A stretch of 63,522 nt of DNA, counting the filler, from Hausera hauseri (taxonomy: Eukaryota), in assembly GCA_046269625.1 (NCBI GenBank). It is 11 parts of 11 records of this genome, joined end to end, with 100 filler letters (N's around TTAATTAATTAA, not from the genome) between each part and the next. Parts side by side here need not be neighbours in the genome. Positions count along the whole stretch, not along the records: positions 1 to 9,257 come from JBJURY010415477.1; 10 more parts are not named here. One strand, given 5' to 3'. The notes beneath the pieces are model-generated. The model did no database searches and was not told the origin of the DNA. It saw only the letters and a program-made list of their open reading frames with translations. Shown piece after piece: positions 1 through 42,180 of the stretch. Position numbers and translations under genes: made by a program. Within the stretch, counting starts at the first letter, position 1; each line of letters opens with the position of its first letter.

Positions 1-1415
1 ATGCCAATTTTAAAGGCATCCTGGCATTCTGCTCGGGATATTATTATTGGCTCAAAAGGTGTTGTAGGCTCAATTATAGCCGAATTTCCCGAATAATAGG
101 CGCAATTAAACAGAAAAAACGATCTTTTCACGTAACATTCTCTAATTTTTATCTTTATAAACTCTGACTCTTGATATACCCAATATGTAAGGCCACTGGT
201 AGTTGTTAGTTGTTCTGGATCTGCTTCCGGACATTTCTCTAAATCAACTAGAGAATACTTTTGTCCTTCGCTAGGTTTTGAACAATCGTACGCTACTATA
301 CCTACGGCTTTAGGCATCAATAATGACGTTATTAATAGAATTTGTATAATTTCCATTATTGACATACCGGTTATACCTGATCGAGACGTAGTTGGTTGCA
401 TCCCAACTGGTCTATCTCTTTCTCGTTCTTCTGTTCTGGTTACATTTGTCGTCAGACTATTCAGCCATCCACCTCTACATTGAGCCCAATTTCCCAGGGT
501 ATCTTTCAGAATCTTCACAACTGTCTTTATATTTCGTTCGATTTCTTCTAGATTCTGAGTCTGATGGTTAATTACTATTATCTTATATAGCAAATAAGAT
601 ATAGCCGTTTGGGCCTTTTCCCGTGTGATGCCTGTGGCAAGCATTTTTTCCAAAATGTCTAATTCGTGCAACTCGTTTATCCTTTCTTCCTCCAGATTCT
701 CATAAAATTGTCTGCTTATTCGCAGCATACTATTACGTAATGTGTTAAATACTTCATCCGGAATTACTGCCTGCATGTCAAATGAGGCAAATGACGTGTG
801 CATCCTAGCCAGTAACGTTCTTAATAATGGATCTATGTCTACTGATTCTGGGGTACCATCTGTTCCTGCTAGTAATAAACGTCTTACTATTTCTTCATTT
901 CTATCTTTTTTATTGCGAATGTCGCTTATTTTTGTTCCTCTTGGCCTGCCTCTTCTCTTGGCGTCCGTTTGGACCGTAACGTCTTGTGTATCGCCCATAG
1001 GGTTTTCTACCTCATGTTGTTCCATTTCTCTTACGATTTCTTCCACTGTTGCTTGCGCTCTAGCCTCCGGATTTATTCCCGTTATATTTATCGGATTATA
1101 ATTCTCACTTCTGCATCCGATTCTCAATATTCTATCATATCCATATAGTGTCCTTCCATAGTAACTTAATCCATAAGGACTGGCTTGGTAAAATGGTTCC
1201 AGCTCCTCTATCCTTTCTCGTAAGGTTTGTATGTCATCGATTTCGTTCATCCGGATGACCCTCGTGTCTTGATTGCCTTCTTTTATCGTTATTCTGATAG
1301 CTTCGTTTCTTCCTTTCTCTTCTTCCGCAGCTTTGGCTAGTACAGTCCTAGCTATCTCTTTCACAGGACTGATGTCTTGGGCTAATAATACCAATTGGGG
1401 TAAAATTTCATTCAT
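1..1415 (-). CDS. Retroelement-type polyprotein (partial, runs off the window edge): Ubl-like domain + AT-hook + internal signal peptide + N-terminus of chuvirus-like class III fusion glycoprotein
   Basis: Hand translation gives a stop-free frame of ~470 codons, absent from the ORF track because it has no stop. Contains IRITIK..DDIQTLRERI..LSYYGRTL (Ubl pattern, ~1298-1080), KRRGRPRG (~959-936), hydrophobic MSIMEIIQILLITSLLMPKAVG (from 365), then IVAYDCSKPSEGQKYSLVDLEKC..ECYVKRS..IIEPTTP..C. Homologous to 40670-40320. Confidence 0.85.
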   Translation of the reverse strand, partial: MNEILPQLVLLAQDISPVKEIARTVLAKAAEEEKGRNEAIRITIKEGNQDTRVIRMNEIDDIQTLRERIEELEPFYQASPYGLSYYGRTLYGYDRILRIGCRSENYNPINITGINPEARAQATVEEIVREMEQHEVENPMGDTQDVTVQTDAKRRGRPRGTKISDIRNKKDRNEEIVRRLLLAGTDGTPESVDIDPLLRTLLARMHTSFASFDMQAVIPDEVFNTLRNSMLRISRQFYENLEEERINELHELDILEKMLATGITREKAQTAISYLLYKIIVINHQTQNLEEIERNIKTVVKILKDTLGNWAQCRGGWLNSLTTNVTRTEERERDRPVGMQPTTSRSGITGMSIMEIIQILLITSLLMPKAVGIVAYDCSKPSEGQKYSLVDLEKCPEADPEQLTTTSGLTYWVYQESEFIKIKIRECYVKRSFFLFNCAYYSGNSAIIEPTTPFEPIIISRAECQDAFKIG

Positions 1416-1443
1416 TCTTTCCGCCGTCACTTTACTAGTAATT

Positions 1444-2160
1444 ATCGATGTGCACTCATGTGCACTATCGATCGGCACATGTGCAAAATCGATTAATCGA
1501 TTACCCCGGGGGGGGAGAGGGACCGAACCGCCATTTCTACACTACTTATACAGATACACAAATGTGAAAAGTGCAAAAGTGCCATGGCAACGGTGCCCAA
1601 AGGCACCTCCACCTTGAGCATTTGCCGATCGGTAGTGCACCGCGTGCAATACCGACCTCTACATGTAACATGATAATTTTATCGATATTTCATTTTATAC
1701 CGGAAAGGCCTATGGGAAGTCTGCCTCACCTGGCATTGATTCGAAGTTTAATTGATGGATTTAAAATCTAATTGCACATTCACTTAGTGCATCGCGTTTG
1801 CACTCGATTGTAACCAGTGCCATGTGCTAACCATCAATATTGGAATTACCAGAAAACCGATATTATTGATTTTTGAACACTTGTACATGTGCAGTGCACC
1901 TGAAAAATGCACCGATCGATGTGCACTAATGTGCACATCGACTAGCACTTTGGCCCAATCGATTCGTGCAACTGTGTAATGAGCAACTATCGATTTGTGA
2001 AATGTGCAAAAATGTGATTAGCAGCGATGCCTAACGGCACCGTTGACTGGCACATTACAGATCGATAGTGCTTCAGGTGCACTACCGACTAGCACATGTG
2101 CAAAATTGATTTATTGATTACATCCCGAGGGTGGGGCAGAGTTCCAATTTTTCCCGTACT
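1444..2160. repeat. GTGCAC/ATCGAT palindrome-rich dispersed repeat (two ends, at 1546 and 2160); probable Polinton-type terminal repeat
   Basis: Aligns by eye with 9358-9535, 31151-32000 and 42181-42605. All copies end in ...TACT, which reads AGTA on the minus strand. Confidence 0.7.
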
Positions 2161-2405
2161 ATCCTCAGAGAACTTTGGATTCTCCGGTCTCTGAAGGTAT
2201 AGGAATTTTGGTGCATCCATTTGAACGTTTATAATTATTATATTGAAATTTTATTGATTTTAGTTTATTCTTAAATCACTGTTCTATTATGCATAGTGAT
2301 TGCCCGGTCCCACGCCCGGGGTGAAAAAATTAGAGGGACAGGAACTCTCCAACGATAAAACTTCTATTGCACTTATATTGTTGTGCATTTTCATAAATAT
2401 ATGCT

Positions 2406-2494
2406 GGTTCTGTTAATTGTAACGTTTATTGGCGCATAATCGATCGATGACGCAGTCGATAGGTAACTGCTTAGCTACTTATGACACCATCTAT
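2406..2494. mobile_element. Isolated terminal fragment (one TIR end) of the mariner family seen at 7310-8564
   Basis: Near-identical to 8476-8564 (gttaattgtaacgtttatt.gcgcataatc.atcgatgacgcagtcgataggtaactgc..). Confidence 0.85.
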
Positions 2495-2924
2495 AAATCA
2501 AATCGTTTACTATTTTAATTAAATTTAAAATTAAAAAGTTTTTAATTGTCATCCAAAAGAAGAATAATAAATTAAAACATTCAGTGACCTTCCAATGTTA
2601 AAAATCCTGATTTTCATGGATACTCACCTCTAAACTTGAAAAACTTGATAATTGTTACAAAAACACTACAATACTGTCTCAGCTTTAGCAGCAAGTAACA
2701 AGAAAGACTAATTCTTCAATAACTTTTATCTATTCACTAGATGGAAGCACTCTATAGGCCAGTAACTTCAATTTATAGTTTACATGCTGTATTAATGACT
2801 TGGCCAGTACTGTACATATTTGTTATCTGCACTTTTTACTTACTTTTGTCAATGAAACTGTTGATTTGAAAACATAAGGGTGGTTTAAAATATTGCTGAT
2901 ATCTATAATGCAATTCTTTAATAT

Positions 2925-3697
2925 GAAAAGTAATTAACGTTTCTACCATCGAATTCCAAAAGCCTGTGTAATCTATTAAACAACTTCTTATTTTATAAAA
3001 TATGTCCTATTCGCATCGATCACCTTCTGCCATCGGTCAACAAGGGAGTTCATGCCGCGTGAATAGAGGTCGGACTTTTTGGAAGCAAAAAACCGATCCA
3101 ATTCTATTTGTCGCGGGTCTTGTTTGCAATATGCGGTCGTGCGTTATCGTGGAGCAGTAGAATTCGTTTTCTGTTTTCCAATGAAGCTCGGGTTTCCAGC
3201 AAATTTTGGTGAGCTGTAGCAATCTGAACACAATAAACATCAGCAGAAATTGTCTGGCCTCGATGAAGATAATCCACATGGATGATTCCCCGTGAAGTCC
3301 ACACTTACGAATGTCTTCGTCTTTACATGCCTGGCCGTAATTCGTCTTCAAGGTTTTTATTTCAAGATTTAAAGCGACGAAACCAAAAACGTGCAACTTG
3401 GTCTGTAACAGAGTCTTCACTAAAAGCATTTCGTATTTTTCTTGCAGCTTCAGATGCTTTTAAACCATTTTTGTATTCATAAAGCAAGACAGTACGAATT
3501 TGAAAACTTGAATACGCCATTTGATGTTAAAAATAATCAATAATGAATTCGTGCTTTAGCTTGAACCTTTATTCTTTAAAACAAGCAAAACAAAAACTTT
3601 CGAAAACTACATAAAGTTTACATCATATTAATATGATTCCCCATTTTTAATGGTGTAACATGAAAAACGTTAATTAATTTTTTTCCGTTACCTGATA
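2925..3697 (-). mobile_element. Internally deleted mariner element (second family)
   Basis: N-terminal HTH (IRTVLLYEYKNGLKASEAARKI..WFRRFK) is joined to the catalytic part (GIIHVDYL..ILLLHDNARPH) and a C-terminal RWQKVI-like end. Partial TIRs (aaaa.taattaacgttt) at both ends. Confidence 0.8.
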
Positions 3698-3999
3698 TGA
3701 TGCCCATTCTCATCTTGAGAAGCTTCCAAATCAATAAAACAAGTCACATTTAAAATTAATTGATTAACACATTTGTTTGTAGATTCACGTTCTAGCCATA
3801 ATAAGCAATACTGGCCACAAGTAGTTGTCATCACGTCTTTATACTGGTTTATTACTGTTAGCAAAGGGGTTATATGAGGATATCCTAGCTTGATTTGACC
3901 ATTCATCAGCATGTTAGCGTATAATTCCAGCAAAAGGTTAGGTGAGGATATCCAACCTTTATCACTTGCCAACATATTTATGTATAATTACCTTCAATT

Positions 4000-5010
4000 C
4001 TTCTCATCTCAATTTTGTTTTTGTCAATATCCAATTCTACGAATACCGTGTTCCGAAGGTGTGATAGTTCGTAGCGGTAAGATTACCGGGGTAATCTGCG
4101 CCATAATCTTCTAATTTCTTACCAATTCGCCTCGAAATTATCTTAAGTATTTCGATCTTTATACATATATCTTGAAAGGTAGTTCTGCTTGCAACCTCAC
4201 TCTATTTGAATCAATATTTGCAAAACTACTTGGTTTCGATAAAGCAGATTTTGATACTAAAGGAAACGGAACATTGACTCAGTGATGTAATAAATTTGTA
4301 TTGCAGACCGCAACTGGACGGTGAGTTAGCATATTTTACAGGACATCAGTACGGAGGAAATTGGAAACAGACATGTCGATTTGCATTATTTTTGGGAAGA
4401 AAATTTGGCTTGCCGATGGCTAAAACTGTAGGTTCAGCTGCGTTGAAAGCTGCCAACAGATTCATTTGATTAAGCGGGCCGGCTAATTTTTCTCCCTCCT
4501 TTCGCATCCGATATAATATTTTGGACTATTCCTCTACTTTCGATATTAGGATCTTGTTGAAGTTTTCTAATTCCTTTTCTCTTTTGATGACTTCAGCTAA
4601 TTGCTGCTTTAGCTTTCCGACTTCTTCACTGAAATTTCCAACTTCTCATTAGCATGAGCAACCCATCTCTTGGCGAGATGAGGGCCGACAAATTTCGGAT
4701 CCTGTCGGTTAATAAATTCGACTTCTGCATAAAACTGTCACGGCTTTTCTTTCTTTGCTCATATTCCTTCTGCCACTTTCCTCTAATTCTTTCGCTAATA
4801 ACAATACTATCCTGCGTATTGCCTCCTTCCAAATTTTTGGCTAACTGCTATAGCCTCCGCTTTTTTTCTCTCTGGGCTTTTCAATTTCTGTTCCTGATGG
4901 GCATTTGTCGTTTTGTTTATTTCCACGGCAATTTTCGACATATTTTCTGATACTTGTCGCGCTTGATTCCTCTTCGCAATTCTGAAACTTGTGTCCGACA
5001 CTCCCATTTT
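4000..5010 (-). pseudogene. Decayed coiled-coil-rich coding sequence, unidentified
   Basis: Overlapping E/K/Q-rich short frames (e.g. EEVGKLKQQLAEVIKREKELEN) separated by frameshifts and stops. No family recognised. Confidence 0.3.
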
Positions 5011-6224
5011 CCACTACTAATGTTAAGTAATTGATATAGTAAAGCAAATTTAGTGGCTTCATAGTAATATTTGAATAATGTGATTAATTGAATCTCTTAT
5101 TCAATACGAATATAATAGCCATTGTTACATAGTGCAAAAAGCGTCAGACTTTTCTGGTTATTTTAACATTTTAACAAAAAATGAGGATAAAGTCGCCAAC
5201 TTTTGGCACAACCTGTATTATCAGTTATCAGGCCTTGAAAATTGTTCAGTCGAATTTGTATACGTCAAGAGCTCGAAGAACGCATTTTGCACGAAATTTG
5301 AAAAAATCTCAACTAAAGACATCAGAACCTCTTCGTATTCACTTTTCTCGGGCGCATCGAACTAATTACCGTACTATTTTTATACCTTAATTCATAGTGC
5401 CTCATAGCCTCTAGCGTCGTTTCCGGTGTGTTCGACTGTCCGGAATTACCAGCGTTACACAGCATTACGTAGTTCCGGTTCCACATCAGAAAGCTTGGTC
5501 AAAGCTTGTATTTGGCAACTTTTAATTCGACTGATTGTTGAGTTTCAAGAATAACGGGTTCATAAAGAAACTACATGACATAATTCTGATATTTACTAGG
5601 AGGCTGAAAAGTCTACATAAAATAAATCGTATTATTTTATAAAAATACTTGAATTAAATAGGAAACTTGATACTGGAGATCATTCTCTTGAATGATCCAG
5701 CGAACTGGAATCATATTCAGAATACGGTCTCTGACGACATTGAATCGCTCATATTATTATAATTCTTCGCGCACATTTTAAATGAAAATTAATAAATCAA
5801 CCTGGTATTTATATTGAATTGAAATTTAATGTCTTATACAATACCATTGAATTAAAAACAGTAGCTAAGATAACATAACATATTAAAAAGTAAAGCACTA
5901 TAATAAATATTTTACACGTTATCCCGTGTTAAGTAATGTAGACAAAGACTAGAACATTTTTATATGCTTAATGATCTTTATGTTCACGATATGGAGATGA
6001 AATATTTTCTTGAACTTTAACCACTTATTTTACACTATAATTTACTATTCGCAATTCAGGAAAGCGGTTTTAATTTTTAAGTAATTTAATTTTATTCCCA
6101 TCAATTTTATCATATAACTAAAATAAAGTATTTTTTAAGTTGAAAACTTTGTTAATATTATTAACAATATATGTTCGACAAAATCTTGTTTCCTTCATTT
6201 CAAGTTAGTCTATTTACTCAAGTA

Positions 6225-7138
6225 CGGTGCTCGCCATAAGTCATTAATACAGTATATTTTTTCTAATTTGTTTCATAAAATCATAAAATATACATATTAT
6301 CTAGAATGTTAAAATAAATTATCCGTTGCATTTCCACAGTACTTCTAATTAAACAACGCGATAAACTAATACTTCGTATTCCCACCCCTTGCCTTTATCA
6401 CTGCCTTTGTAACTAGGGTGGGTTGCTTGGATATTCTTAAACACGACTTCCCATAAATGAACTATGCTGGCCAGTTCAGTGTCTCACATCCATGGTCATT
6501 CAGAAATGCAGTAATCAGCCTTGATTTATGGCACGGAGCATTGTCATGTTGGAATACACTCCTCTGATCCAAAAAGCAAGCTGGCTAATGGCAGCATAAA
6601 GTCCTGACTGATTCATGGTGTCTTGCCACTTGTTCATCTGACGAACGGCATTCCAAGACATGCAATCCCAAACCGTAACCGAACCAGAACCATGCTTAAC
6701 TGTAGGCTTAACGCATTCTTGCATGAATTTCTCCTAGCCTTCTTTTCACGAAAGATCTTTTAGCACCACAAAACACTTCGAATGAACTCTTCACACCACA
6801 ATATATGCTTCCACTTTAGACCAGCATTTATCAGCCTTCTGATAGTTCTTGAAATTTCAACAGATGCTTACTGAAGCTCAGCTTGCAGGTCTGAGGATGT
6901 CATACTCCGGTTGCTTAGACTCATCCACACCGGCATCCGGTCTTTTCTGTCAGTGGTTTTTTTTTGGCCGTCCTTTCCTTGGCATATCAGCAACTGAATT
7001 TTTGGTTCGATACTTTATGATATTGGAAACCGTTATAACATTGATACCCATCATCTGGTCTACAGCCCTGTAAGATTTACCGCTCTGTACCTGTACCACT
7101 ACCATACGTCTTCCAGTGAAATTTTCCTATGTTGCCAT
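6225..7138 (-). mobile_element. Degenerate Tc1-family transposon
   Basis: N-terminal GKSYRAV..PRKGRPKK, central PTVKHGSGSVTVW, C-terminal AVIKARGGNTKY* (stop at 6366). TA-CGGTGCTCGCCATAAG terminus at 6223-6240. Many stops and frameshifts. Confidence 0.85.
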
Positions 7139-7309
7139 GTCTAAAAAACTAAAAATTTTCAAAATGACTAGAAATGGCCAAAATAAATAGTTTCAATGAA
7201 TTATTTAATTAAAATATACAAAATATATGAAATATGAATTTTATAAATAAATTGGACATTTCAGAAAAACAAGGTCATGACCTTCAAAGGCCCAATACTA
7301 GAGCACATA

Positions 7310-8564
7310 TAGAGGGTGAGTCAAAAGTAAGGAAGCAGTAAAGAGTAAAACATTTATTAACAAACTAGAAAAGATATAAGAAATTTCAATCTTCAAAATA
7401 CAATCCATTATGTTCTATGTTCTTTTGTCATCGATCAGCCAAATTTTCGATTCCGGTCCGATACCATGCAGCCGGCTTTGAGGCGAAAAACTTACAGACA
7501 CTCTTCTCGACTTCGTTAAGGTCCCGGAATATTCTGCCACGAAGAAAGTGAGCCATCGACCTGAAAAGATGGTAGGATGTGGAAAAAGTTTGATTCTATC
7601 CAGCTCCCGAATTTTTCCTTGCGTAGATCGGGCGGTGTGCGGCGGAGTGTCATCTTGCCGCAGCAGAACCCGCTTTCTGTTGACCATGGCCGGGTACTTT
7701 CGGACTAAGGCCTCATATATCCGTTCAAGTTGTTGATAGAGCTCAGCTGTGATGCCATGGTTATCTGGAAATAGATCAAAATGTACTGGACCTTCAAAAT
7801 TCCACCAAACACATAACATGACCTTGTGTTCGAACCGTTCCCGTCTCGCCACAGGTTTTGGAAGCTGTCCCGGGTCAATCCACTGATTTCGCATATCAGG
7901 ATTACGGAAGAACATTCACTTTTCATCACACGTAACTACACGTTTGATGAAACGCTCGTCCATCGAGTTTTTGAGTAGCTCCCGACAGGTGTCTGCGCGC
8001 CGTTTTGCCTGTGCTGGTGTCAATTCATGGGGGGAAACCTGACAGCTCCTGTTTACCCTGCCGAGCTTGTGAAGGTGGCGAACGACACTGGATTGTTATA
8101 TTCCAGTCTCTGTCGAGATTATGCGCGTGCTTGTGGCCGGAGTCGTCACAACAGCTTGGAGCACATCTTCAGAATCAACCGTTGAAGGCCGCTCTAAGCG
8201 GGGTTGATCGATGAGCTCGGTGTCGCCATTTCTGAATTTTTTGAACCATCTATTCGTTGCAAAAACGGAAATGACACCCTGACCTTCAACTTCGCAAATT
8301 TTTTCCGTGGTTTTACGCTTACTGCATCCCCGTTTCCAATAATGCCGCAAAAGTGCTCGAATAGCTATTTTTTCGATGTTTAATATAAAATCTATAAAAA
8401 TTGTTAAACAAAATCATATGACAATGTACATAATATATATGAAAGAGGATGAAATGAGCTATCGAATGATATGCAGGTTTTGTTAATTGTAACGTTTATT
8501 AGCGCATAATCTATCGATGACGCAGTCGATAGGTAACTGCTTTGCTACTTATGACTCACTCTAG
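7310..8564 (-). mobile_element. Full-length mariner element with frameshifted transposase (~8385-7386)
   Basis: TIRs gtgagtcaaaagtaaggaagcagt / actgctttgctacttatgactcac flanked by TA. HTH, PHEL, VTCDE, KVMLCVWW and GLYFED* motifs. About 1.25 kb. Confidence 0.92.
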
Positions 8565-8629
8565 TATTTTATGAATTTGCTTTAATGCATCAAATAAATG
8601 AAATACACATCGGCACCAAAATTTTGTCA

Positions 8630-9257
8630 CATAGTGAATCGAATGACATCATTACATTTTTCTAATAATGTATGCTTGATTGAGTTTTCGAGTTCGAATA
8701 GCTAATTATTCGACTTTTAAGCTCGATTGCAAATATCTGGCATCATAGGAAGATTCTATATATATGCATTCCAATCTATGTCTGCTTCAATATTTATCAA
8801 TTTTAGTGTGCTTCACTCTCAATTTCACCTCAATTTGACAATCAATATAAGAATTACTTAGTGTTTATTATGCACTTGTTTTAATACACCGCGGTGCACT
8901 TAACCGCACTAATATTCATCTGCCTATAGGTTTTCGTATATGAGAAATCGAATGACGTCATGAGATTCTTCGAACGATGTATGCTTGATAGAGTTTTCTA
9001 GTTCGAATAGCTAATTGTTCGACATAGATGCTTGAATTCGAATATCTGATGTCATATTCCTATTCAGCATATATGTTTTGCTATATGTGTGCATTATTAG
9101 ATTTATCGATTTCTGCTTCATTGGGCTTCAAATACATATCTTGTCTAATTCGAAATATTGATTTTATATCTATGTAGCACATTTTCATGGATTCATTATA
9201 ATGGATTATAGGGTTATCGTATATGAGGAGTCGAATGGCATCATTATATTTTTCGAA
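8630..9257. repeat. ~290-310-bp tandem repeat (2+ diverged units)
   Basis: tcgaatg.c.tcat motif recurs at ~8638, ~8948 and ~9231. gatgtatgcttga..gagttttc.agttcgaatagctaatt recurs in the first two units. Confidence 0.75.
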
Positions 9258-9357: not shown

Positions 9358-9535
9358 CGATTAGCACTTTGTCCCGATCGATTCGATCAATAGTGCACTG
9401 TGCAGCGATCGATAAGTGAAAAGTGCAAAAGTACCTTTAGCAACAGTGCCTAGTGGCACCGTTGATAGGGACTTTTTGGATCGATTTATCGATCCCCCCT
9501 CGGAGGTGGGACCGAACCGCCATTTTCACATTACT
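9358..9535. repeat. Palindrome-rich repeat end (probable Polinton-type terminus)
   Basis: Matches 42384-42605 closely, including the caac.gtgcc-tagt-ggcaccgttg hairpin and ggaccgaaccgccattt..tact end. Confidence 0.75.
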
Positions 9536-9835
9536 TATGTAAATTCAGCATTTTAATTATTCTTTTCTGTATTAAAATTTTTTCTTTCTATACAACGATA
9601 TGGTATTATATATTGACATGTATTGCTACAAATACAATGTTTTTATTTCATGTTTTTGGAACTACATTGCGGCACTACGTTTGCGAAGTCAATAAAATAT
9701 AGTTATGAGATCTTCTTGTCAGTAAAGCGTCTTTATAAAGTCTCTTAATTTTGTGAAAATCACATTCAACCTTTAGGGTAATGTTTCTTTTACCATGTTA
9801 AATTAAAATTGAACATTACGAGGAAATTACCTAGC

Positions 9836-12148: not shown

Positions 12149-13699
12149 CTAGCTATTTACAATGGTGGTCAGATAGTTGAACACAAGTACAGTTGAACAC
12201 AGCAACAATTGAACACAAGTAAGTTGAACACAGCAACATTTGAACACAAGTACAGTTGAACACAGCAACAATTGAACACAAGTACAGTTAGCTATTTTTC
12301 TCAGATATTTCATATTATCCTGTTCATTGGCATATCCTAGAACAACAGACATTACCTTTCTCATCAATATCTCATACTTCTTCCTTTTTGGTTCTGGATT
12401 GCCAATCTCTGCATCAACCAATGTTTTGATGTGAATAGCCATGTCTTTCTTCAATCCCTCAAATAAATCCCACACACCAGGATGACTACAGTTGAACAGA
12501 GCCCTGAGAGAATTGTGGAATCCTTCACAGCAGTTTGTAGTTCTTTCTTGTCCAGCAGCAGCTGCTGCATGATGATTCCAGATTCTGACAGGAAACATCG
12601 GCTCTCTACCTGCATAGCCAGCAATGTAAGTGGAGCCAAAGTATGTGATCAGCTCATTGTATCTCTCATCATCTGGAAACTCAGCTGCCAGCTGATCAAA
12701 CAGTTCTCTCACATCATCCTGGGGGACAAATGCTAAAGCTGCCAGTGACTTCATCTTCAGTCTCATGGGGATCTGCTCTTGATCATCATAGACAGTTTTC
12801 AACCCCACATTTCCAATTTTTCTTAGAAGGCTTTGGCTAAGGTGGAAGTAGCAGCCTTTGATTTCTGCACCTGGAAAAGCTATTTGGGCAGCAGACATGC
12901 AAGCTTTTTCAAAATCCAGGAGAATTGTCTGTGGAGACAAGTTGGGCAGCAAGTGATTCAGGATTCTAAACATTCTGTTGTAAGTGTCTTGGGTTTTGTT
13001 CTGCAGGAGAAAGTAGATGCATGGAGGATAGGAGTTGCCATTCTTTGCATGCCAAGTGTAAAGCTGGTAGAACATCTTAGGGACTTTGTCAAAGGTTCCA
13101 TCCCCAAAGATTGTGTCTTTCTGAAGTTCCACCAAAAGATCTGGTTCACCAATTGCCAGAATTCTGTTAGGATCATCCTCTCCAGAATCATGAAGAATCA
13201 TGTGCATGTACTCTTCTGGAATTTTAAATTGTGCTGTGTCTGGATTTGGAGTATGATTTCCTCCTGCCTTCTTAACTCTGTTCAATTTTCTAGTGATTGA
13301 TGACTTTTTTGGCATATGGGCCTGAATTTCTTTGGATACCTGCATTTCATTAAGAACAGTTCCCATCACATTTCTTGGATTGGCACCCACAGACTTGATT
13401 TTGTCCACCATTTTCTGCACAACAGCATTGGCATTGATTACCTGTGGAAATGAATCATGGGAGTGGCCAGTGGGTTCAACAACAATGGCAGGAGTTTCAT
13501 CATCAGTAGTTTTCATTCGGGAATGGCATTTCTCTAATCTGTATTGCCTGCACCTCCATTGGACAATGCCATTGGTTGTTCTTTGTTGAATGTACTCATG
13601 GCCTTTGTAACCCACAACTTTCCCACCCCTTTTAGTAAAGTAAAATTGTGTCCAATGGTTGCTGTGTTCAACTGTACTTGTGTTCAACTGTCTGACCAC
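12149..13699 (-). CDS. FLYWCH-MULE transposase (open frame, start codon uncertain)
   Basis: FLYWCH zinc finger (TKRGG..Y..WRC..C..HSH), DGTF, LLDFE, GCYFH, RTTNCCEGFH catalytic motifs. No internal stop. Confidence 0.92.
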   Translation of the reverse strand: MVRQLNTSTVEHSNHWTQFYFTKRGGKVVGYKGHEYIQQRTTNGIVQWRCRQYRLEKCHSRMKTTDDETPAIVVEPTGHSHDSFPQVINANAVVQKMVDKIKSVGANPRNVMGTVLNEMQVSKEIQAHMPKKSSITRKLNRVKKAGGNHTPNPDTAQFKIPEEYMHMILHDSGEDDPNRILAIGEPDLLVELQKDTIFGDGTFDKVPKMFYQLYTWHAKNGNSYPPCIYFLLQNKTQDTYNRMFRILNHLLPNLSPQTILLDFEKACMSAAQIAFPGAEIKGCYFHLSQSLLRKIGNVGLKTVYDDQEQIPMRLKMKSLAALAFVPQDDVRELFDQLAAEFPDDERYNELITYFGSTYIAGYAGREPMFPVRIWNHHAAAAAGQERTTNCCEGFHNSLRALFNCSHPGVWDLFEGLKKDMAIHIKTLVDAEIGNPEPKRKKYEILMRKVMSVVLGYANEQDNMKYLRKIANCTCVQLLLCSTVLVFKCCCVQLTCVQLLLCSTVLVFNYLTTIVNS

Positions 13700-13700
13700 C
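12164..13700 (-). mobile_element. Compact MULE (Mutator-like) DNA transposon with repeat-containing TIRs
   Basis: ~55-bp TIRs ggtggtcaga.agttgaacacaagtacagttgaacacagcaac at 12164 and inverted ending at 13700. No clean 9-bp TSD visible. Confidence 0.9.
12174..12290. repeat. Subterminal tandem array of ~15-17-bp TTGAACAC units
   Basis: Seven TTGAACAC cores alternating -AAGTAC and -AGCAAC on the left end, versus three on the right end. Confidence 0.9.
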
Positions 13701-15579
13701 TTTCATTGACATTTGGCGCCGCTGCACAGTCGTCAATTAACGATTACGTTGAATAATTGATTCCCTTTGTTGACAGTGACGCCGAAGGCGAAATTTATGT
13801 GTATTTATATACGTAAAAAAATTGAAAACTGTTTGTTGTATTGGTGATAACAGAAAAATAAAGTGAAGTTTGTTATTATTTTTTTATATTTAAAATAAAA
13901 TTATTGAATAAGGCTTATTCTGACAATCGGGGCTACTTTATCTAACACTGTCTGAAATTATTTTAAATAACGGTCTTGTCCTGGTAGCATTACCGACTAA
14001 CATTTGCTACAGAAGCAAAAATCCTGCATTAAAGGTTCTTATCTGGCAGCATTGCCAACAAACCATTCTGACTAAAAGTAACGTGCACTAAAGCTTCTGC
14101 CTGATAGACAATACTTACTAAGCCGCAAATTCTAACGCCATCTTTCGTACTGAATTGTGAGAATAGCCTCTATTGTCGAATTACTGTTGCAAGATAAATA
14201 AGCAAAATACTATTTCACAGGTGTTATCCTAGTGATACTACCTGAAGAAGGGTTGTCAAGTCGATTCTTGGTGACTCACCAACATCTTTGACCCAAATTA
14301 ATTTAACGAACAATAAAGATAATCCATAAACTTCGTGTTTCGAATTCGTATCGCCTGCCAAATACCAATTGTACAAAGATAAGTCAGTGCTTGGTATGAA
14401 AATCGTTGATTGACATTCGTATATCATTAAGCTTGAAGCCGAACTCACTGTAAGGCTAACACTGGTCCGACCTCCAACAGTTAAAATAAATCCAACGGAT
14501 CATAAATTTAACAAAAGTACAAAAGATTTTGCTGATAAACGAAGTCTTTTTCGGCTTTTAATTTTGTTTTAAATAGAAAGACTTTAAGAAAAGTTCTGCT
14601 TTTCACGAAGAAGTATAAAAAGCACAAAAACAAATTTGCCAGGGAACATTTAAATTTAGCGTCTCTCGTTTTATATTTGAAATTATATCCATCGATCGGC
14701 CTTAAATAACGGACTTTAATAATAAACAGTAACATTCATAAAACAATGTGACAAATGTTATAAGTAATCGGTTTTTGTGAGATATTTGATTTTAACCTTA
14801 TTTTAAATAAAAATACTTAATAGTTCGCTGTGTCAAATAATTGCAACTTCAAACAATACTCCAACCCGAAATATTTCCCTTTAAAAGCAATGTCGCCATA
14901 TAGTTTTATACAATTCTAAAAATTGTCAGAAAATTATTTTCATTTTCTGTTAAAATTTCATGGTGTTTTACTTGTCGAATAACGTAATGAAAGTAATTTA
15001 ATTATTAAAATTAAGCTAAATCAAATTTTATCAGCATTTTGAAACACAGAAAGTGTTTCCAGGAATTTTCTGCTTGTAAAGAAGGCTGGCCTGAGAAGTT
15101 CGAGATATGCTTCCTCACATGGTTCTATCTTTACAAAATACATCCACTGTAGCCTGGTGTTAGCTATAAAAACATATTTACTCCTCTTACACACCATAAC
15201 CCACATATAATAAGTCCGTATCACCCTCATATGTCAGTATCACCCTCATATATTATTGCCTATTACCCTTGTGTGTGTGCACAGGACTGCCTGGATAAGA
15301 AAATCCATTGTTATCCCACCTCATTCATCCACTGCCTCCTTTTTGCTCCATCTTCATTCCAGCTGTTTATCACCACTTTCATTCCATCATCACTTCAAAC
15401 CTTCCAGGAGGCCTGCTCTGACTTCTCTGTGAATACGCTGGCTCCAGGTCAGTCAGCACCCAGGTGTGTTGGTGGGTTTNNNNNNNNNNNNNNNNNNNNN
15501 NNNNNNNNNNNNNNNNNNNNNNNTTAATTAATTAANNNNNNNNNNNNNNNNNNNNNNNNNNNNNNNNNNNNNNNNNNNN

Positions 15580-18500
15580 CCAATTGCCATTCTAAATTTT
15601 GTATTGTTAGGTAATATAGTTTCTTCCCCAATGTCCTTTAAATATCCTGGTTCCATGGGTGTTTCGACGGGTTTGGAATCATTTAAATTAAATCTGTCAA
15701 TAATTTCTTGTATTTTCACATTTTGATTTAATGCGAAGTGTCCTTGTTCAGTTTTCCTTATATTGATTCCAAGGTAATATCTGACGGGTCCTAGATCCTT
15801 AATCTCATATTCTTTACTTAGACTCTCAATCGTTTCTTTAATTTGAGATTCGCTACCGGCAATTAAGATGTCGTCTACATAAACAACAACATATATGGAA
15901 TTTTTGTCCTTTTTACTAAAGTATAAACATGGATCAGCTGTGCTTTGTGTGAAATTTAAATTTTTTAATGTTTGGCTAATCCTTGTCTGCCATGCTCTGG
16001 CGGCCTGTTTGAGTCCATATATGGCCTTCTGCAATTTGCAAACTTTGTTTTCCTTTCCTGGAACAACGTATCCCTCAGGTTGTGCCATGTATACATCTTC
16101 GTTCAGATTTCCATGTAGAAAGGCAGTCTTCACGTCAATGTGATTGACGTTCAAATTTTTATGGGCTGCGGTGGCAAGCAACGCCCTAATAGTTGTATGG
16201 GATACCACCGATGCGTAAGTTTCATCATAATCTTCACCGAATTTTTGTGAATAACCCTGAGCCACTAGTCGAGCCTTAAATTTTTCTATTTTGCCTTCGC
16301 TGTTATATTTGGATTTAAAAGTCCATTTACTACCTATGATTCTTTTTCCTTGCGGGAGATCTACGAGTGACCATGTGTTATTTTCCTTGAGAGAATTGAT
16401 CTCTTCTTGTGTGGCCTGAAGCCATTTTGATTTCTCATTTGGGTTCTGTAATTTTTGTATATCTGACCAGCTACGCGGTTCTTGTACGTGATCATTAACA
16501 TAATATATTAATCTATCTGGAGGAACTCCCTTATTTGATCTTAATGATCTTCTCGGCTCTTCATCAGCAGCACTTGTAGGTGTTGAATTTTCGCTGGTGT
16601 ATGATTCAGACAAGTCTATTTCAATTTCAGAATTTTGATGATTATTTGACTCTTCAAGAAATTTAACAGTTCTAGATATGATAATATTTTTATTCCCTGT
16701 GTAAATTCTATAGCCTTTAGAGTTAATGTCGTATCCAACGAAGATACCTGCTTGTCCCCTGTCATCTAGTTTAGATCTTTTAGTTTTGTCAACATAAGTG
16801 TAAACCTTGCATCCGAACAATTTTATATTCGATAAATTAGGCCTGTATTTTTCCCAAAGTTCAAATGGAGTTTTCTGGTTAGCCTTGGTAGGTAGTCGGT
16901 TCTGCAAGTAAGTGGCAGTGTGAATTGCCTCTCCCCAGAACTTGTGTTCAAGATTTGCTTCATTGAGGAGACATCGCGTCATTTCCATTAATGATCGGTT
17001 CTTACGTTCTGCTACACCGTTCTGAGGTGCGCTGTATGGAACGCTTAATTGATGGACAATTCCAAGAGATTTTAAATAGTCTACCATATCAGTATTAATG
17101 TATTCTCGACCATTATCAGTTCTGATAGCTTGCGGTACTTTACCGAATTTATTTTTTATCATAAGTACGTATTCCTTTAGTTTACTGAAGACTTCCGATT
17201 TATTTGATAAGAGAAATATAGTAGTATATCTACTAAAATCATCGATAAATGTCAAAAGATAGGTTTTCCCTCCAATTGTTGGGGTTTTTAGCGGTCCGCA
17301 TAAATCACTATGTATGAGTTCTAAGACTTTTGTAGCTCTGTGTTGAGCTTTATGAGGGTAAGGTTTACTTGTTAACTTGGATTTAGCGCATATCTCGCAA
17401 TCGAGATTATGTGTGCATTTGTTTATCTTTATACCTATGGCTAAATCTTCCCTAACCGTTTGCTTGATGGCTTCGTAGTCTCGATGACCTAATCTTTTAT
17501 GCCATATATCAATACAGTTTTCATTACTGCAGTGGTGGGCTAAATTCACGCAACCTGGAGGTTTATCGTTTTGGAAAGTCACCTGATATAAACCCTCTTT
17601 AATCTGTGCAGTTAAACAGATTTTTCCTGCGTATGTGAAATGGCAGTATTCCTTTTCAAAAGTCACTGTACACCCATTTTGAGTAGCTTTCTTCACCGAC
17701 AATAAATTTGTTTTAATATCTGGTACGTATAATACATCCTTTAGTGTAATTCTATTTGTTTCGTTATTTGGGGTCCTTTTTGTTAGTATTATTTCACCTG
17801 ATCCATAGGAAGTAAGCGTTTGTCCATTGGCAATTATAACTTCTGATTTATTTGTATTGTACACTTCGGAGAATAGATTTTTATCATTAGAAATGTGGGA
17901 TGAACTTCCACTGTCTATTATCCATACATTATTGCCTGGTCTTTCTGTGATAAATGCAAAATTATTCATTTCTTCGTTTAATTTTTCAACCTCCTTGGGG
18001 TTTACTTCCAGTGATTCATTACAAGGTGTGGTCCCTGTATTCATTTCCAAACATAGCGATGATTTATTTTCTGTTAATTTTGTTTTCATTTGTTGATTTG
18101 TACTTTTAAGGTGCCAGCAATTTTGTTTAGTATGATTTTTTCGTTTGCAATATGTGCAAAATTTGTCCGCCTTAGGATTAAAGTAATTTCGTTTGGTATT
18201 ATTGCCATGATAATTATTGTGATAGTTGTGATTTTGGAAATGTCTATTTTTGTTTATTTGAAATGCCTTCGTGGCGTCTTGTTGAGTGGCATTCTCAATT
18301 CGCCTAGAATATTCATCTATCAGTTTGCTTTTCAAAAAACTTGGATTGAGTTCCGACTCGGGTCTGGCCTCAAGAGCTGTAATAAGTGTATCATAAGATT
18401 TCGGCATAGAGCATAAGAGAAGAGCGGAGATGTGTGAGTCACTTATCACTTCCCCGATGGCGTTCAATTTATCTATAATTTCTAAAATTTTTGTTATGTG

Positions 18501-18854
18501 AGTGTTCATATTTCCGCCTTCCTCAAGTTTTGTATTATACAATTTTCTCAATAGGAATAGTTTACTGCTCAGATTTGTTCTTTCGTGGACATTTTTTAAC
18601 GTATCAAAGGTTTCCTTAGCCGTCGTTAAGTGCTTGACGTGCATTATCTGCGAATTGTCTATGAATAAGTTAATCAAGGCCCTTGCTTTATTATCTTTCT
18701 TTTTCCATTCACTAGTTTCAGGTGTGGGAGGACTTTCAGTAACTAAGTCATATAAATCCTCTCTAATGAGAACCATCTGAATTTTAAATTTCCACGTACT
18801 ATAATTATGTTCATTTAATTTTTCAATTATTTGGCTTTCTTTAATTGAACACAT
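15580..18854 (-). CDS. Copia Gag-Pol part 1 (Gag, CCHC knuckle, protease, integrase, RT)
   Basis: NYSTWKFKI, CTYCKRKNHTKQNC, WIIDSGSSSH, WHKRLGH, HSDLCGP, RTDNGREY, QNGVAERKNR, HIDVKTAFLHG, YVDDILI. PR-IN-RT order is copia-type. Confidence 0.97.
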
Positions 18855-19094
18855 GTTTACGCACTTTATTCACTTCGTATCAAAATACAATATCTTTTCG
18901 AAAGTGAAAGTCAATAAATTCAATACTTTTGAGATCGCTTATAATATAGGATACCATAAAATAATAATGAAAATTGAAGCAAACATTATGCACAAATATA
19001 CTTATATAGTTGTATAAAACAGTTCAAGACAGCATACTGAGCTTCTATAATCATTCTTATTTGTTGCGCATTTATGCGTTATTCATTTAATGCT

Positions 19095-19108
19095 TCAGTC
19101 TCATAATC
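19095..19108 (-). promoter_or_regulatory. Primer-binding site complementary to the anticodon arm of elongator tRNA-Met
   Basis: GATTATGAGACTGA directly follows the LTR CA. The plus strand reads TCAGT-CTCATAA-TC, the animal elongator tRNA-Met anticodon stem-loop. Confidence 0.8.
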
Positions 19109-19714
19109 TGTTAGAAGTAAATAAAGATATCCTAGGTAACACAGTTTCAAGGTAAGTATAGATAAGGAACTTCACTTACCTGATTTGCTTCTAATGCGAC
19201 GAATATTGGTATCCTTAATAATCCGCTACTTTTCCTTTTTTACATAGGAACACAGAATGTACGTAGACGAATAGCGACGTTCAGTAATGGCAAATTAAAC
19301 ATAGACGGAAGTAATAAAGAAATCCTTTCAATTGGGATGAACAATTCTATTTAATATAACATAAAATTACATTCTTGATTAAGTATATTTAAATTCAAAG
19401 TAATCAATTTGTACAATTATTTAATACTAGAATAGTAGGAGAGTGCCGAACGGCCAACCTCCATGATTAAGACTTTGCTACCAACAGAGTGAAGAAAATG
19501 CGTACGTAAGAGAAATAACTTGCGGTTAAAATTCTCAAAGAACACTCCCAGCTTTAGGAATGAGCTGAGCAGCGTATTTATTCATGTACGCGTAGAAAGC
19601 TAATAGAGTTAAAATTGATAAGTCTTTTGCAGTCTGAATAAATATTTCTTACACACAATTATATAGAAGTTCGAAATGAGTTCAATTCAGATTCAGAGAT
19701 CATCACTTCCAACA
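19109..19714 (-). repeat. Copia LTR (606 bp)
   Basis: Begins TGTTGGAAGT right after the polypurine tract AAGGAGGGA. Ends ACTTCTAACA, giving a 10-bp imperfect terminal inverted repeat. Confidence 0.88.
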
Positions 19715-36970: not shown

Positions 36971-37205
36971 TATTATAAAAAAAACAAAATGAAGAATTTC
37001 CGAAAAACAAGTGTTAAACGTAAACCTACTACCAAGCGGGTGTCCGGCGGTAAGAAACGTGTATCAAAACGAACAACCGCTACAGTCAAGCGATTAATCA
37101 ATTGTGTGCTTCATCGGACAACAACACCAGCACCTAGACGCAAATTGCCGTCACAGTTGCAACCGTTATAAACAAATACGTCTCATCAACATCAATACGT
37201 CAAAA

Positions 37206-37421: not shown

Positions 37422-38190
37422 CCTATATCTTCCTCGTTTTGGGCGATAATCGATTTATATTTGCATAATAATTCGTAAAATTGACAATATGCTTCCGGTG
37501 AAAATTTTATCTCAACATGAGGTGGAAACTCGGCATATTTATAAGGTTTTTCTTCGATTGTTATTGCCCATACTTTATAAGTATGGCCCAGTGTAGTATT
37601 TGCATACAACGTTACAGGAGTTGGTGCGTTATTTACTATTCTGATTGGTACTCGACCTGTCACTACTCTAGTCAAAATGTTACTGAGTATGACATTTGGG
37701 TTAACGCTTTCTTCTGGTTCAAAATATACTGGTTGGTCGTTCTCTTCGCGGATTTGAGCATAAATTAACATTTCGGTTCCGGGCGGAATATTTTCATCGA
37801 CGAGAATCCATACTTCTGGTTTTCTTTCTTTCCTTGTTTTAATCCCTTTCACTGGTTCGAGTTCAAGTAGTTTTCCGGTATGTAAATTAATCGCGATGTT
37901 GGGTAATTGCTTGAATATATCTCAACCTAACACTACATCATCAGTTAATAGATCCATTATGGCAAACTCGTGTTGAAGAATTTGGCCCATTAGTTGCACT
38001 AAGGGACTCCATTTAAATTTTGGTTTGGATTCTTGCCCGAAGGCTCCTATGCTGCTCGGATCTGACGACGATACTGGCTGCAGTTGTTTTCGTAATGTCG
38101 GCGGTATTGATTCTAACTTAATAAACGATTTTCTGATCCTGTGTCGATTGAGGCATAGACATTCCAATCTTCAATGGTAACTTTTGTGGA
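37422..38190 (-). pseudogene. Retropepsin aspartic protease and gypsy-type PR-RT linker
   Basis: VTIEDWNVYASIDTGS..DVVLG*D. Then IPPGTE..VPIRIVN..VTLYANTTLG and ELLCKYKSIIAQNEEDI(G), the motif that precedes gypsy RT. The contig ends here. Confidence 0.85.
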
Positions 38191-38879
38191 GAGCCTTCCT
38201 TCCATAACTGTTCCATAACAACTCGACACGTCCTTTGGTCGCTTAATTGAAGAAATCTTATGTCCGTTTATCATTATTTCTGGTGATGAAATGATATTCT
38301 CAGTCAACTGTTTCAGTTCGTCGTTAGGGTATAAGTCATTAATCGCTAAGTTATTTGCATTGTTTCTAATTAATGGTTCTTGTACTATTGGATATTGGGG
38401 TGTTCTTATTCCTTGTGTTCCCCAAACTGTTGATCTTGATTCTATATTACGAGCTATTCTTGGTGAGTACAATATTTTATGGTCATCCTCCGCTCGTTGA
38501 TTAGTGATCTGCATTTTCTTCAATACTCCATATTGTTTTGTTCCTTCATAAGGGTCTTCATAGCTAAAGGGTTTCCGACTAATTCCGATTTGTATGATAC
38601 CATAGACGTTCTATCGCAGTCTTCATATATTGGAGCTGTTGGTCAAATGATGGGCAAGGGTTCCTTAATTACGGAATACATCTTGTATCTATTTTGTCTG
38701 AGGATTGCTTCTCCCTTAGGCTCATCATCATCGGAGTTGTCTCTTCGTGTTATTGATTTCTTAGCTTTGCGTTTCAATAGAAATGTAGGTCTTGCTCGTC
38801 GTTTATAATTATGGTAGCCGACATGACGTTCAACGTCATTTTTCCATCGATTTTCTTCGTATGCTTTAAGCATTTTGCC

Positions 38880-40670
38880 GAACGGTGTGATAATTGCGGT
38901 TAAAATCTTTCAAGAAAATCCTGTTAGCGTGAATATTTTGTATCAATTTATAACCGCTTGGATTACCGCTGTTACTAGTTATACCAAGAAATAGATTGCT
39001 AAAAATCCAAATTCGGCTTGTCCAAAGATTAAAAATCTCCCCCATATTTTATAGAGTATTTCTGTGGTTACTTATTGGTAATGGTTTGCACCAAGTAAGG
39101 ATTCCCATTTAGCCTGATATCGAGTATCGCCAACTACTAATGCCATAGCTCCATTTAATTCGTGTGTTCTTTGTCATGAAACAGCAAGGAATTGTCGAAA
39201 AGCTTTGATTTCTTTAGGCCTGTAAATACCTTTTTGAGGTGTATCCTGAAAATTGCCATCGGTAATTCCTTTTGCTAAATTAGTTCCAGTTAGTTTTTTA
39301 GGAATGATAGTGACACCTCCATTGGGTAAGCTAACCCAATCCGTTTCGCTACGTCTGAACATTGATTTATCCAAACTTGCCTTACAATCCTTTAGGATGG
39401 TGGGTTGTGTTGCGGTATCTAGCAATACCCTGGTGAGGGGCATGGCTAAGCGTGGAGTGTTTCGATAGATCACATCGTTTTTCTTCAACGTTAAGTGGTA
39501 CGTCTCTTTTCTCGCACTCATATGTTAGTATAACTTCGCCAGTGACTCGGCCAAAGATTCCTTCTCTCATGGGAATAATCGGTGAGGCTAACTCAGGGTT
39601 TGCATAAATGAGAGCTAATTTTGTCCTCATAATCTCCGTATCCAATTTGCAATCATTAGTTATCATTTTATGGTATAACTCGGCTATTCCGACGTCCTTT
39701 ATAATAGAAGTAATCGTCTCGGTTTTTCATGTAATCTTTGATTCGAATGTCTTGCGTTTCTAAATTGTATGTTTTCGCGTTTATCTCCGTTTCTGCGACG
39801 AAGAACGCTTCATAGTTAGTAGTGAACATTACTACTTCACAACGTAAAATCATCTCCTTTTTTATGAATTTCAACCAATGTTGATCATAGATTAATATCG
39901 TAGGTGTATGATGCTCTGATACGTCTTCATGTGCTCTCAAACTGATGTCGGATTTGTCTACGTATCTTTTCCGGTAGTTTCATTAAATTTCAGTTCCTTA
40001 ATCTTAATAAAATTACAGTCTTTTCCAGCGGGCGGTTCCCATACGACGACAGAACTTTTGAAAGCACAGGTTCCGTCCTGCATATGACATTTTTGGTTCT
40101 CGGTATGTAGCTTAGTGACGCTATGGAACATCACTTTTTGGACTCGCATTTCCGATTCGTAAAAGTCGACTACTACTAAGTTCGCTTTCAATCCTTTTCC
40201 GGTGTCGTATACTGCTCCATTACATTGCCAATTATGCATATCTAACCTTCCGACTACTATTTTATGTACTCTAGTTATTTTCCCGGGCTGCATTTCTAGT
40301 TCCATAATTTCCCAATTCAGTCTTCAAGTCTCTCGGGCCTGCATGCAGTGTTGTCTTTCCAGATTCATTGGAATTGGGGGGGTGGTTGGTTTGATTATCG
40401 AGGAATGTCCGTGCATTAGTCCAAAGTGAAAAATAATACGAGATCGTCTCAGCATACACTCCATGCTGTCAAAAGATATCAACTCTTATTGCTGATATAG
40501 GAAATAACTCTTCTCCTTTGTTTCCATTTTATGTGGTCTGGCATCTTTACATGTTTCTAAGTCAATTAGTGAGTATTTTTGTCCAAGTTTAAATCTATCG
40601 CAATCTTAGACGGTGAAGGAGCCCACCTGTATTATCAGCATCATTATGGTGAACAAACTAACTAACCAAT
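38880..40670 (-). pseudogene. Chuvirus-like (Monjiviricetes/class III) fusion glycoprotein
   Basis: *DC..GQKYSLIDLETC, C...DGTC....VVW, KLALIYANP..GIFGRVTGEVI..C, PLTRVL, GIY..EI, WGRFLIFG..AIYFLV..IN, GFS*KILTA. Confidence 0.85.
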
Positions 40671-42180
40671 TAGATTCATTCTTCCGCTTGTTATTATACG
40701 TTGTAGTCAAATTCCGTATGATGTCTCAGAGTCCATTATTACTACTGTTCTTTTTGTCTTCTTCCTTGTCAAACAATTTTGGCCAATTTACTTCACACGG
40801 AAACTTTTTAGCTGCTTTTCGTGCCAAGCTTGTAGCTCAATTTAGTTCTTTCTCTCGATTTGAATTTGCTTTGATCGCCAAGTACAATTATTCTTTTCTT
40901 AGCTCTTCTGTCGTATTCTCCACCATATTTTTCTCAACTACTGCGTCGTCAGTTAGGCTACATTTTGACAGATTGAAACGCGAACTTCTCATTGTCCTCC
41001 CTGCGTTAAATATTGCCTTTTCTTTCTCATCTAATGTATCTCCCCGAACACCTGAATAATTTGCGATACGTATTAAATTTTCCATTAACTCGATTAACTC
41101 CTAACTGTCTGTACTAAAGCTAGGAATCGACATTTGTCTCAGTTCTCTAATTAATTCTTTGTTATAGTCAATCTCTTCTCGGGCTTTCCTAGGTCTTCCG
41201 ACCGGGCGTTTTGGCCTTGGGACATTGTTTGTTATTCCACTCAGTGGCACTAGGTTCTTGTCGTATTGTTCTTTGTCTTCATCCGTCTGTAAATTCTCAA
41301 AGTACATTGCAGCATCTCGTACTCCCATAATTTGTCCTACGCATTGTTCTGTTTTAGCCTTCTGCGTGGCTTCTTCTTTTGTCTGTTCATTGGCTATTAT
41401 TACTACTATCCGGTTCGTTTCGCCGGGGATAATGCCAACGTCTATTAACTGTTCTAATTCGTCGAGTATTCTTCCCTAAATTAAATGTGTAATTTAGCTC
41501 ATTTGTTCCGCCGTTATTTAATAACCATTCTCTTACGTCTTTCATGTAGGAGTACGTGGTTACCTCACATTCCTTTTTGTCCATCCACTCAGATGATATC
41601 ATTATTTTCATCGTTACCTCAGGTTTATCCTCCAAGATTTTCGCATACTTCTTTATTAAAAGTTTTGGCACCGCGCTGTAAATTGTGTTTTTACTAGATA
41701 ATTTCACTAGATATTTTATGTTGTCTTAGCTTATTTTCAGAAATATTTATTTTAATTTGTTCAATCAACTTCTTTTCAATTAGCGCTGAGTCCAATTGCA
41801 TCTCCACGTTGAATTTCCTGTTCTGTGGATACCTTTCTATTTCATTTAGGTATACCAGAGCTATAGGGTTTTCGGCCGTTATTTCAACTAAGTAAGAATC
41901 CCATTCCGGTTCATTCCTGATATCTGGGAGTCCATAGTCTAATAGAGCTGTGTTTGTCCTTTGCACATTTTCTGTAATTTCTTTCAATTTTAGTTGTATT
42001 TCTTTTATCTGTGTAGTCCGGAAACCTATGCCGTTTCCACAGGCATACTGAATCATTTTCAGTAGTTCGCCTAATTCATTNNNNNNNNNNNNNNNNNNNN
42101 NNNNNNNNNNNNNNNNNNNNNNNNTTAATTAATTAANNNNNNNNNNNNNNNNNNNNNNNNNNNNNNNNNNNNNNNNNNNN

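Follow-up and report, generated by a model that had tools for sequence, protein, structure and literature searches.

A 5′-truncated fragment of a probable gag-env-pol retroelement joins predicted ubiquitin-like and Bcl-2-like domains to an envelope start in one frame in Hausera hauseri

The open frame at the left edge of the window (the whole 63,522-nucleotide stretch of Hausera hauseri DNA analyzed here) is, with high probability, a stop-free fragment, truncated on its 5′ side, of a retroelement present in many copies. This retroelement is likely a Ty3/gypsy LTR element (Metaviridae) of the Burro-like gag-env-pol kind, and the fragment carries a predicted ubiquitin-like (Ubl) domain, a predicted Bcl-2 fold, and the start of an envelope glycoprotein (Env) in a single frame. 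As found, the fragment matters little, since the layout of which it is a truncated copy has been published before. It is of use as fold-level support, from predicted structures, that the BCL2-like motif of Burro corresponds to a complete Bcl-2 fold whose groove signature is degenerate, and that this fold recurs in compact elements.

The window is built from 11 short contigs with an artificial N spacer between each and the next, ten in all, and comprises AT-rich eukaryotic DNA rich in copia, gypsy, MULE, and mariner pieces. The features discussed below are collected in Table 1.

Table 1. Coordinates of the open frame, its parts, and the associated repeat and sibling copies in the window
Feature	Position	Strand	Basis or remark
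Open frame, probable middle fragment of a retrotransposon polyprotein gene	3..1415	-	471 codons, open at the window edge; Met internal in the closest relative, P0002
Two helices ahead of the Ubl domain, probable remnant of a helical segment starting farther upstream in relatives	1314..1415	-	Alignment rows, model
Ubiquitin-like (beta-grasp) domain, predicted	1071..1304	-	AlphaFold2, Foldseek, leave-out profile
Single Arg-Gly-Arg-Pro (GRP) motif, AT-hook-like	933..956	-	Sequence, at aa 198
Bcl-2-like helical domain, predicted; BH2-like W..GGW kept, BH1 Trp-Gly missing	450..833	-	Profiles, Pfam, fold comparison
Internal hydrophobic segment, likely Env signal peptide (predicted)	300..365	-	Hydropathy, about aa 389-419; precedes the conserved AYDC start
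First ~99 residues of a chuvirus/mononegavirus-like fusion glycoprotein (gB-type, class III by literature)	3..299	-	Pfam PF24664, 44 relatives; cut by the edge
Terminal piece of a very-high-copy dispersed repeat abutting and truncating the 5′ side of the element	1459..1546		Left junction 1440-1459
Second, longer copy of the same dispersed repeat	1564..2160
Decayed sibling on another contig	37422..42080	-	Ubl remnant, GRP, helical region, signal, whole Env with TM, DTG protease, linker towards RT; many stops and frame changes

The open frame and its glycoprotein start

The minus-strand frame is free of stops from the preceding stop to the window edge (3..1541), and a run of this length has a chance of ~3e-16 at the local composition. 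Counted from the first Met, its length agrees with the ~470-codon frame running off the edge that had been reported in the preliminary description. The ORF listing shows the frame only if open ends are allowed, and it was missing from the ORF track presumably because open-ended frames had been excluded there. No match to the Pfam AT_hook family was obtained in this ORF, and the sibling copy gave a weak one (E 0.048).

The last 115 residues of the ORF, behind the hydrophobic segment, match the Pfam family PF24664 (Monjiviricetes_fusion) at aa 397-511 with an E value of 1.1e-11 and 43.9 bits, above the cut-off of 27, so that Env is related to the fusion glycoproteins of mononegaviruses and chuviruses. 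The window edge cuts the Env ~100 residues in, while the Env of the relatives extends over ~550 residues up to the transmembrane (TM) segment.

Relatives place Env between Gag and Pol

Of 1.84 billion representative proteins searched, 44 proved to be relatives, among which P0002 was the only close one (41% identity over 503 aa). Its similarity to the ORF extends up to and beyond Met 1415, and it runs 400 residues farther upstream, where a capsid-like region (by eye) and a CCHC knuckle (zf-CCHC, E 2.5e-4) lie in frame. The Gag knuckle of P0002 is located at aa 197, and its Ubl region at aa ~425. Counting P0002, a CCHC knuckle precedes Env in 6 of 12 long relatives, and Ty3_capsid/Retrotrans_gag matches were obtained in P0031 and P0034. 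On the other side of Env, an aspartic protease follows in the same frame in nine of 11 long relatives, and in four of the 11 (P0006, P0021, P0031, and P0036) it is followed by RT, RNase H, and integrase in the gypsy order, with matches to RVT_1, RT_RNaseH, and the gypsy-type Integrase_H2C2. No capsid was found between the TM and the protease of the relatives.

At the level of the family, Env therefore lies in frame between gag and pol, with all three represented in P0031 (capsid, knuckle, Env, and all of Pol) and the Gag-Env join in P0002. The present copy shows the join of the accessory region to Env, in which the Ubl and then the BCL2-like domain, both as predicted folds, stand directly ahead of Env, and P0004 links Env to both the Bcl-2-like domain and the protease. 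The layout was chained from overlapping records, none of which by itself contains Gag, Ubl, Bcl-2-like domain, Env, and RT. The relatives with this layout bear out the earlier proposal of a conserved family design. Judging from them and from the broken sibling, the frame of the present copy very likely continues via the TM into protease and RT.

We also considered that the ORF might be the usual 3′ env of an element in gag-pol-env order, or might stem from the glycoprotein gene of an endogenized chuvirus-like RNA virus. The Pfam family is indeed that of a Monjiviricetes fusion protein, and two of the 11 long relatives (P0003 and P0013) end ~55 residues after the TM. Both versions are nevertheless quite improbable, as ~370 residues of Ubl and Bcl-2-like sequence stand ahead of the signal and join Gag, not integrase, in P0002, and the sibling has a protease downstream of Env.

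The Env tree was built from 31 rows, leaving out 14 of 45 proteins that had no start motif or fewer than 85 residues of Env. Most of the tree was unresolved, with stars on only 4 of 28 inner branches, and the ORF and P0002 formed a pair with values of 93/93. The Bcl-2 label did not cluster on this tree beyond shuffles (155/500), on which many rows are too short to show the domain. A homologue search with the N-terminal 335 residues returned none at near length, and the ESM Atlas gave unnamed matches only, all below 0.8.

Some further observations were made on individual relatives. In P0004, P0005, P0006, P0007, and P0034, the Env TM is followed by between two and four aspartic-protease domains in tandem. 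The NCBI record of the gag-env-pol polyprotein P0021 assigns it, as a hypothetical protein, to a Flavobacteriaceae MAG, which likely reflects eukaryotic contamination of the bin. In P0039, a chromodomain stands directly ahead of the Env signal segment, suggesting a different, pol-then-env order in that record.

A dispersed repeat truncates the 5′ side

Although stop-free, the copy is not intact as had been stated, since its 5′ side is cut by a dispersed repeat (~1440-1459) and its 3′ side by the window edge. Read depth jumps ~140-fold at 1459, where 134 contigs depart from the window sequence. The window copy lacks Gag because the repeat takes over at this junction, and a tblastn search with the Gag of P0002 against window 1416-9257 gave no match. 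Neither an LTR nor a primer binding site was found in the window, which includes one flank of the element only, the repeat junction.

The preliminary description regarded the element as envelope-first. In its strict form, this would mean that the repeat at 1440-2160 is an LTR, that the element begins just behind it at Met 1415, and that no Gag stands ahead of Env. An in-frame Met does occur soon after the repeat, and ENV-GAG-POL elements are known in two mites (PMC13524379). Such an arrangement is, however, very unlikely here. The similarity to P0002 passes Met 1415 and leads to Gag, the junction with its departing contigs falls within the body of the repeat, whose defined end faces away from the ORF, and the relatives carry no capsid between the TM and the protease. 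The repeat also recurs beside unrelated DNA at three other places (9358-9538, 31686-32000, and 42184-42605), and it was rejected as the element's own LTR on the grounds of its junction, its orientation, and these other locations. With Gag in frame upstream in P0002, the knuckle in half of the long relatives, and both window copies lacking their 5′ parts, the term envelope-first was dropped in favor of a 5′-truncated gag-env-pol fragment.

The repeat itself (1459-2160, 9358-9538, 31281-32000, and 42184-42605) is rich in ATCGAT/GTGCAC palindromes and ends in a short GC hairpin, with CTAC-T ~25-30 bases on; a (TATG)n tract comes after one of the copies. No Rfam match was obtained for the upstream repeat. 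We take it to resemble a non-autonomous Helitron/Helentron-type or SINE-like element.

Copy number and selection

The stretch or part of it was found in seven sequencing runs, one of which carries at least half of its words. In run X1, 5,112 contigs fall on 1-1470, with 324 at least 99% alike and 4,024 below 95%. The summed depth was 3,500-29,000 over the ORF versus 7 on the flank, where depth does not stand for copy number. Among the run contigs listed, which are short, none spans the whole stretch, and a search of metagenome and viral contigs for the locus returned none. No RNA run was among the listed runs carrying the stretch.

Of the 40 listed variable sites (the best-supported of 579), 30 are synonymous, against 22% expected, and 27 are third positions. 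The window letter is the minority at 37 of the 40, and the two listed indels are in frame. This pattern fits purifying selection on a mobile family together with a young truncated copy.

Domestication, which had been suggested earlier, would require the truncated frame to be kept as a host gene for a Ubl/Bcl-2-like/Env protein, with the upstream repeat supplying the promoter. The ORF is stop-free, as opposed to seven stops in 503 codons of the matching frame of the sibling, its differences from other copies are mostly synonymous, and planarian stem cells reportedly benefit from the BIR/RING part of Burro1 (second-hand, in PMC13465017). However, thousands of diverged contigs cover the whole stretch, so the synonymous bias is explained by selection on the mobile family, and the neighbors on the contig are decayed mariner-type pieces. 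We regard domestication as very unlikely, and nothing in the data supports it for this Gag-less copy of a many-copy family. As to the recent activity that had likewise been proposed, the open frame and the synonymous bias make it plausible for the family only.

The decayed sibling

The sibling is bounded by contig ends on both sides (5′ at 42080), with Env and its TM at ~40620-38800 and the DTG protease at ~38145, and it matches the pre-RT region of P0006 with an E value of 2e-14. The glycoprotein starts of the two copies align as had been claimed (tblastn, 38% over 108 aa near 40.6 kb, E 2e-17), and the motifs quoted for them are present in both. Upstream of the signal peptide, tblastn found no similarity between the ORF and the sibling.

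The claim that the sibling repeats the same order of parts could be upheld in part. Besides the glycoprotein start, the second half of its Ubl scored against the family profile at a level reached by 0 of 1000 shuffles. The first half gave no match (307 of 1000 shuffles as high), and a Bcl-2-like assignment of the sibling's helical region found no support, with 496 of 1000 shuffles scoring as high against the profile of the ORF helical domain.

Ahead of its Ubl, the sibling starts with 128 stop-free codons (41697-42080, minus strand), which gave no Pfam match and form a further accessory segment of no assigned family.

Predicted folds of the accessory domains

The AlphaFold2 model of aa 43-165, built on four sequences, had a mean pLDDT of 65. 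Foldseek rows for this model were mostly ubiquitin, UBL, SUMO-like, or LC3 proteins, with a best E value of 3e-3, and only 7 of 1000 shuffles scored as high as the leave-out profile. On the basis of the model and the profile, the predicted Ubl fold holds for the ORF.

The second domain had been described simply as a helical region, and its likeness to Bcl-2 was overlooked. Weak Pfam Bcl-2 matches, all under the cut-off, recur in this ORF, P0002, P0003, P0009, P0011, P0014, and P0018, the best in this analysis reaching 17.7 bits versus the curated cut-off of 31.4. With a nine-row profile of the domain, the 60 best of 102 matches all belonged to the Bcl-2 family (best E 0.0017), and the leave-out profile scored 38 bits versus a shuffle maximum of 10.4; the alignment behind the profile and model was picked from carriers of the W..GGW motif. 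The model of aa 237-364 had a mean pLDDT of 77.8. All 41 rows listed for it by Foldseek against the PDB belonged to the Bcl-2 family (best E 9e-3), and viral Bcl-2 homologues ranked top in a viral structure library. In the VIA comparison, the Bcl-2 family took the top 29 of 50 rows, the best of them with Z 8.8, an rmsd of 3.3 Å, and 113 aligned residues, and the first unrelated row had Z 5.7; the best Z is below 13, the curated cut-off for the helical domain, and all Bcl-2 scores lie below their curated cut-offs. We therefore describe aa 237-364 as a predicted Bcl-2 fold.

The domain shares the helical fold and the BH2-like motif with cellular and viral Bcl-2 proteins (Bcl-xL, BOK, BAK; CNP058, BHRF1, KsBcl-2, A179L), at 8-17% identity. 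Unlike these, it has no BH1 Trp-Gly, and it is embedded in a polyprotein with the Env signal segment after it, whereas Bcl-2 proteins have a tail anchor of their own. In the BH1 NWGR signature, Trp-Gly is absent from all nine rows covering the site, and the next Lys/Arg is kept in all nine. The BH1 Gly is required for BH3 binding in cellular pro-survival proteins. Its loss with the Trp argues against ordinary BH3 binding, and makes an ordinary anti-apoptotic action uncertain. In each of the 11 carriers examined, 21-57 residues lie between the W..GGW motif and the Env signal segment. The domain is optional, since P0005, P0006, and P0007 have sequence without the motif at that place.

A modulation of host death or ubiquitin pathways is the likely role of the accessory domains. 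That they serve some cell-survival role seems to us slightly better than an even bet, and canonical BH3 binding by the Bcl-2-like domain is unlikely.

Comparison with known elements

The layout, as was missed in the preliminary description, has been published for the planarian Burro/GYPSM1, a giant Ty3/gypsy element (Arkhipova and Yushenova 2019, PMC6431247). In the available part of that paper, a single ORF is described with Gag and CCHC knuckles, Ubi2/SUMO-like, BCL-2, Env, protease, dUTPase-like, and RT parts; its Env matches mononegaviral fusion proteins and is presented as the first in-frame env between gag and pol. By this published description, the order Gag-Ubl-BCL2-env-PR-RT is shared with the present family. 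Burro ORF1 comprises 4,873-5,140 aa and includes MATH, BIR, RING, ankyrin, and Smc parts (PMC6431247), and the protection of planarian stem cells by the BIR/RING part of Burro1 is reported second-hand in the accessible text of PMC13465017. No Pfam matches to BIR, MATH, or ankyrin were found in P0001-P0002 or in the 19 relatives scanned. In P0002, the gap between the knuckle and the Ubl is only ~200 residues and gave no Pfam match to the BIR, RING, MATH, or ankyrin domains that mark the giant ORF of Burro proper, a compact version compared with the giant Burro (PMC6431247).

GAG-ENV-POL "ancient errantiviruses" with a gB-type Env, such as Smed_errantivirus_1-6, have been reported from Platyhelminthes, Bryozoa, and Nematoda, with 9 flatworm elements from three free-living species (Chary and Hayashi, eLife 2026, PMC13524379). 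According to the part of this paper that was available, they share with the present family the Env between gag and pol, a gB-type Env related to chuvirus glycoproteins, and a multicopy nature, and the YQES / RECxxKR stretch of the ORF can be recognized by eye in the Env rows of Smed_errantivirus_1 and _2. The same part contains no mention of Bcl-2 or ubiquitin for these elements. Anakin (Dezordi et al. 2020, PMC7642597) is likewise an LTR retrotransposon that has taken up a chuvirus glycoprotein of the same broad family, but it differs in being a BEL/Pao element, whereas the relatives of the ORF are gypsy by their RT and integrase matches. For a Bcl-2 domain in LTR elements, PMC6431247, as available, was the sole description found; Grohme 2018, Lee et al. 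2026 (Dev Cell, Burro1), and Sacco 2022 may detail the domain or compact relatives further. The available portions of PMC12440569, PMC8532177, PMC13238120, and PMC12801592 held nothing bearing on the identity of the element.

Proposed working of the polyprotein

Based on the relatives and the membrane topology, the full family would encode one polyprotein in the order Gag, accessory domains, Env, and Pol. Gag, the Ubl, and the Bcl-2-like domain would remain cytosolic, and the internal hydrophobic segment would direct the Env ectodomain into the ER, with cleavage at the end of the segment. With the Env TM, the chain would return to the cytosolic side and continue as protease, RT, RNase H, and integrase, and the element's own protease may free the parts. 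Within the producing cell, the Bcl-2-like domain would likely damp a cell-death or stress response of the host, and the signal segment may stay attached to it and anchor it in the membrane. The present copy would have lost Gag when a repeat was inserted or the locus rearranged. It is likely non-autonomous or dead, and its frame may still be open because the lineage was under purifying selection until recently.

Some poxviral Bcl-2 folds act by a route other than BH3 binding. We tentatively extend this to a widespread compact gag-env-pol lineage, beyond the giant planarian Burro, with a Bcl-2 fold that has lost the BH1 Trp-Gly and whose tail anchor would be the signal segment once cleaved by signal peptidase. 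Targeting of Env would then yield an ER-anchored Bcl-2-fold protein that keeps Env-producing cells alive by a non-BH3 route. We consider this chain of events doubtful, and a literature search of limited depth on Bcl-2 domains in LTR elements found nothing on the tail-anchor idea. If it were true, one hydrophobic segment would both target the envelope and anchor a cell-death modulator in a retrotransposon, and the "apoptosis tinkerer" role suggested for Burro could be tested on a small domain.

Other features of the window

Several further features were noted outside the element and its sibling. On the plus strand at 26894-29222, a C1-tetrahydrofolate synthase (MTHFD1) sequence lies in three adjacent frames with no obvious introns, and is 60-65% alike to animal and fungal proteins alike; it likely represents either a processed pseudogene or a host gene that a retroelement has taken up. 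A copia element on the minus strand (15528-20509) has an open gag-pol frame of ~1,100 codons, is split over two contigs overlapping by 77 identical bases, and looks young. An intact-looking frame with FLYWCH and MULE transposase parts (12149-13702, minus strand) is flanked by 16-base tandem units in inverted orientation. At ~37190-37321 on the plus strand, a short frame stands at a contig end after a basic stretch, and by eye we take it to resemble a small protein of the Polinton/adintovirus type. A START-domain fragment of 163 codons is located at 24717-25208 on the plus strand.
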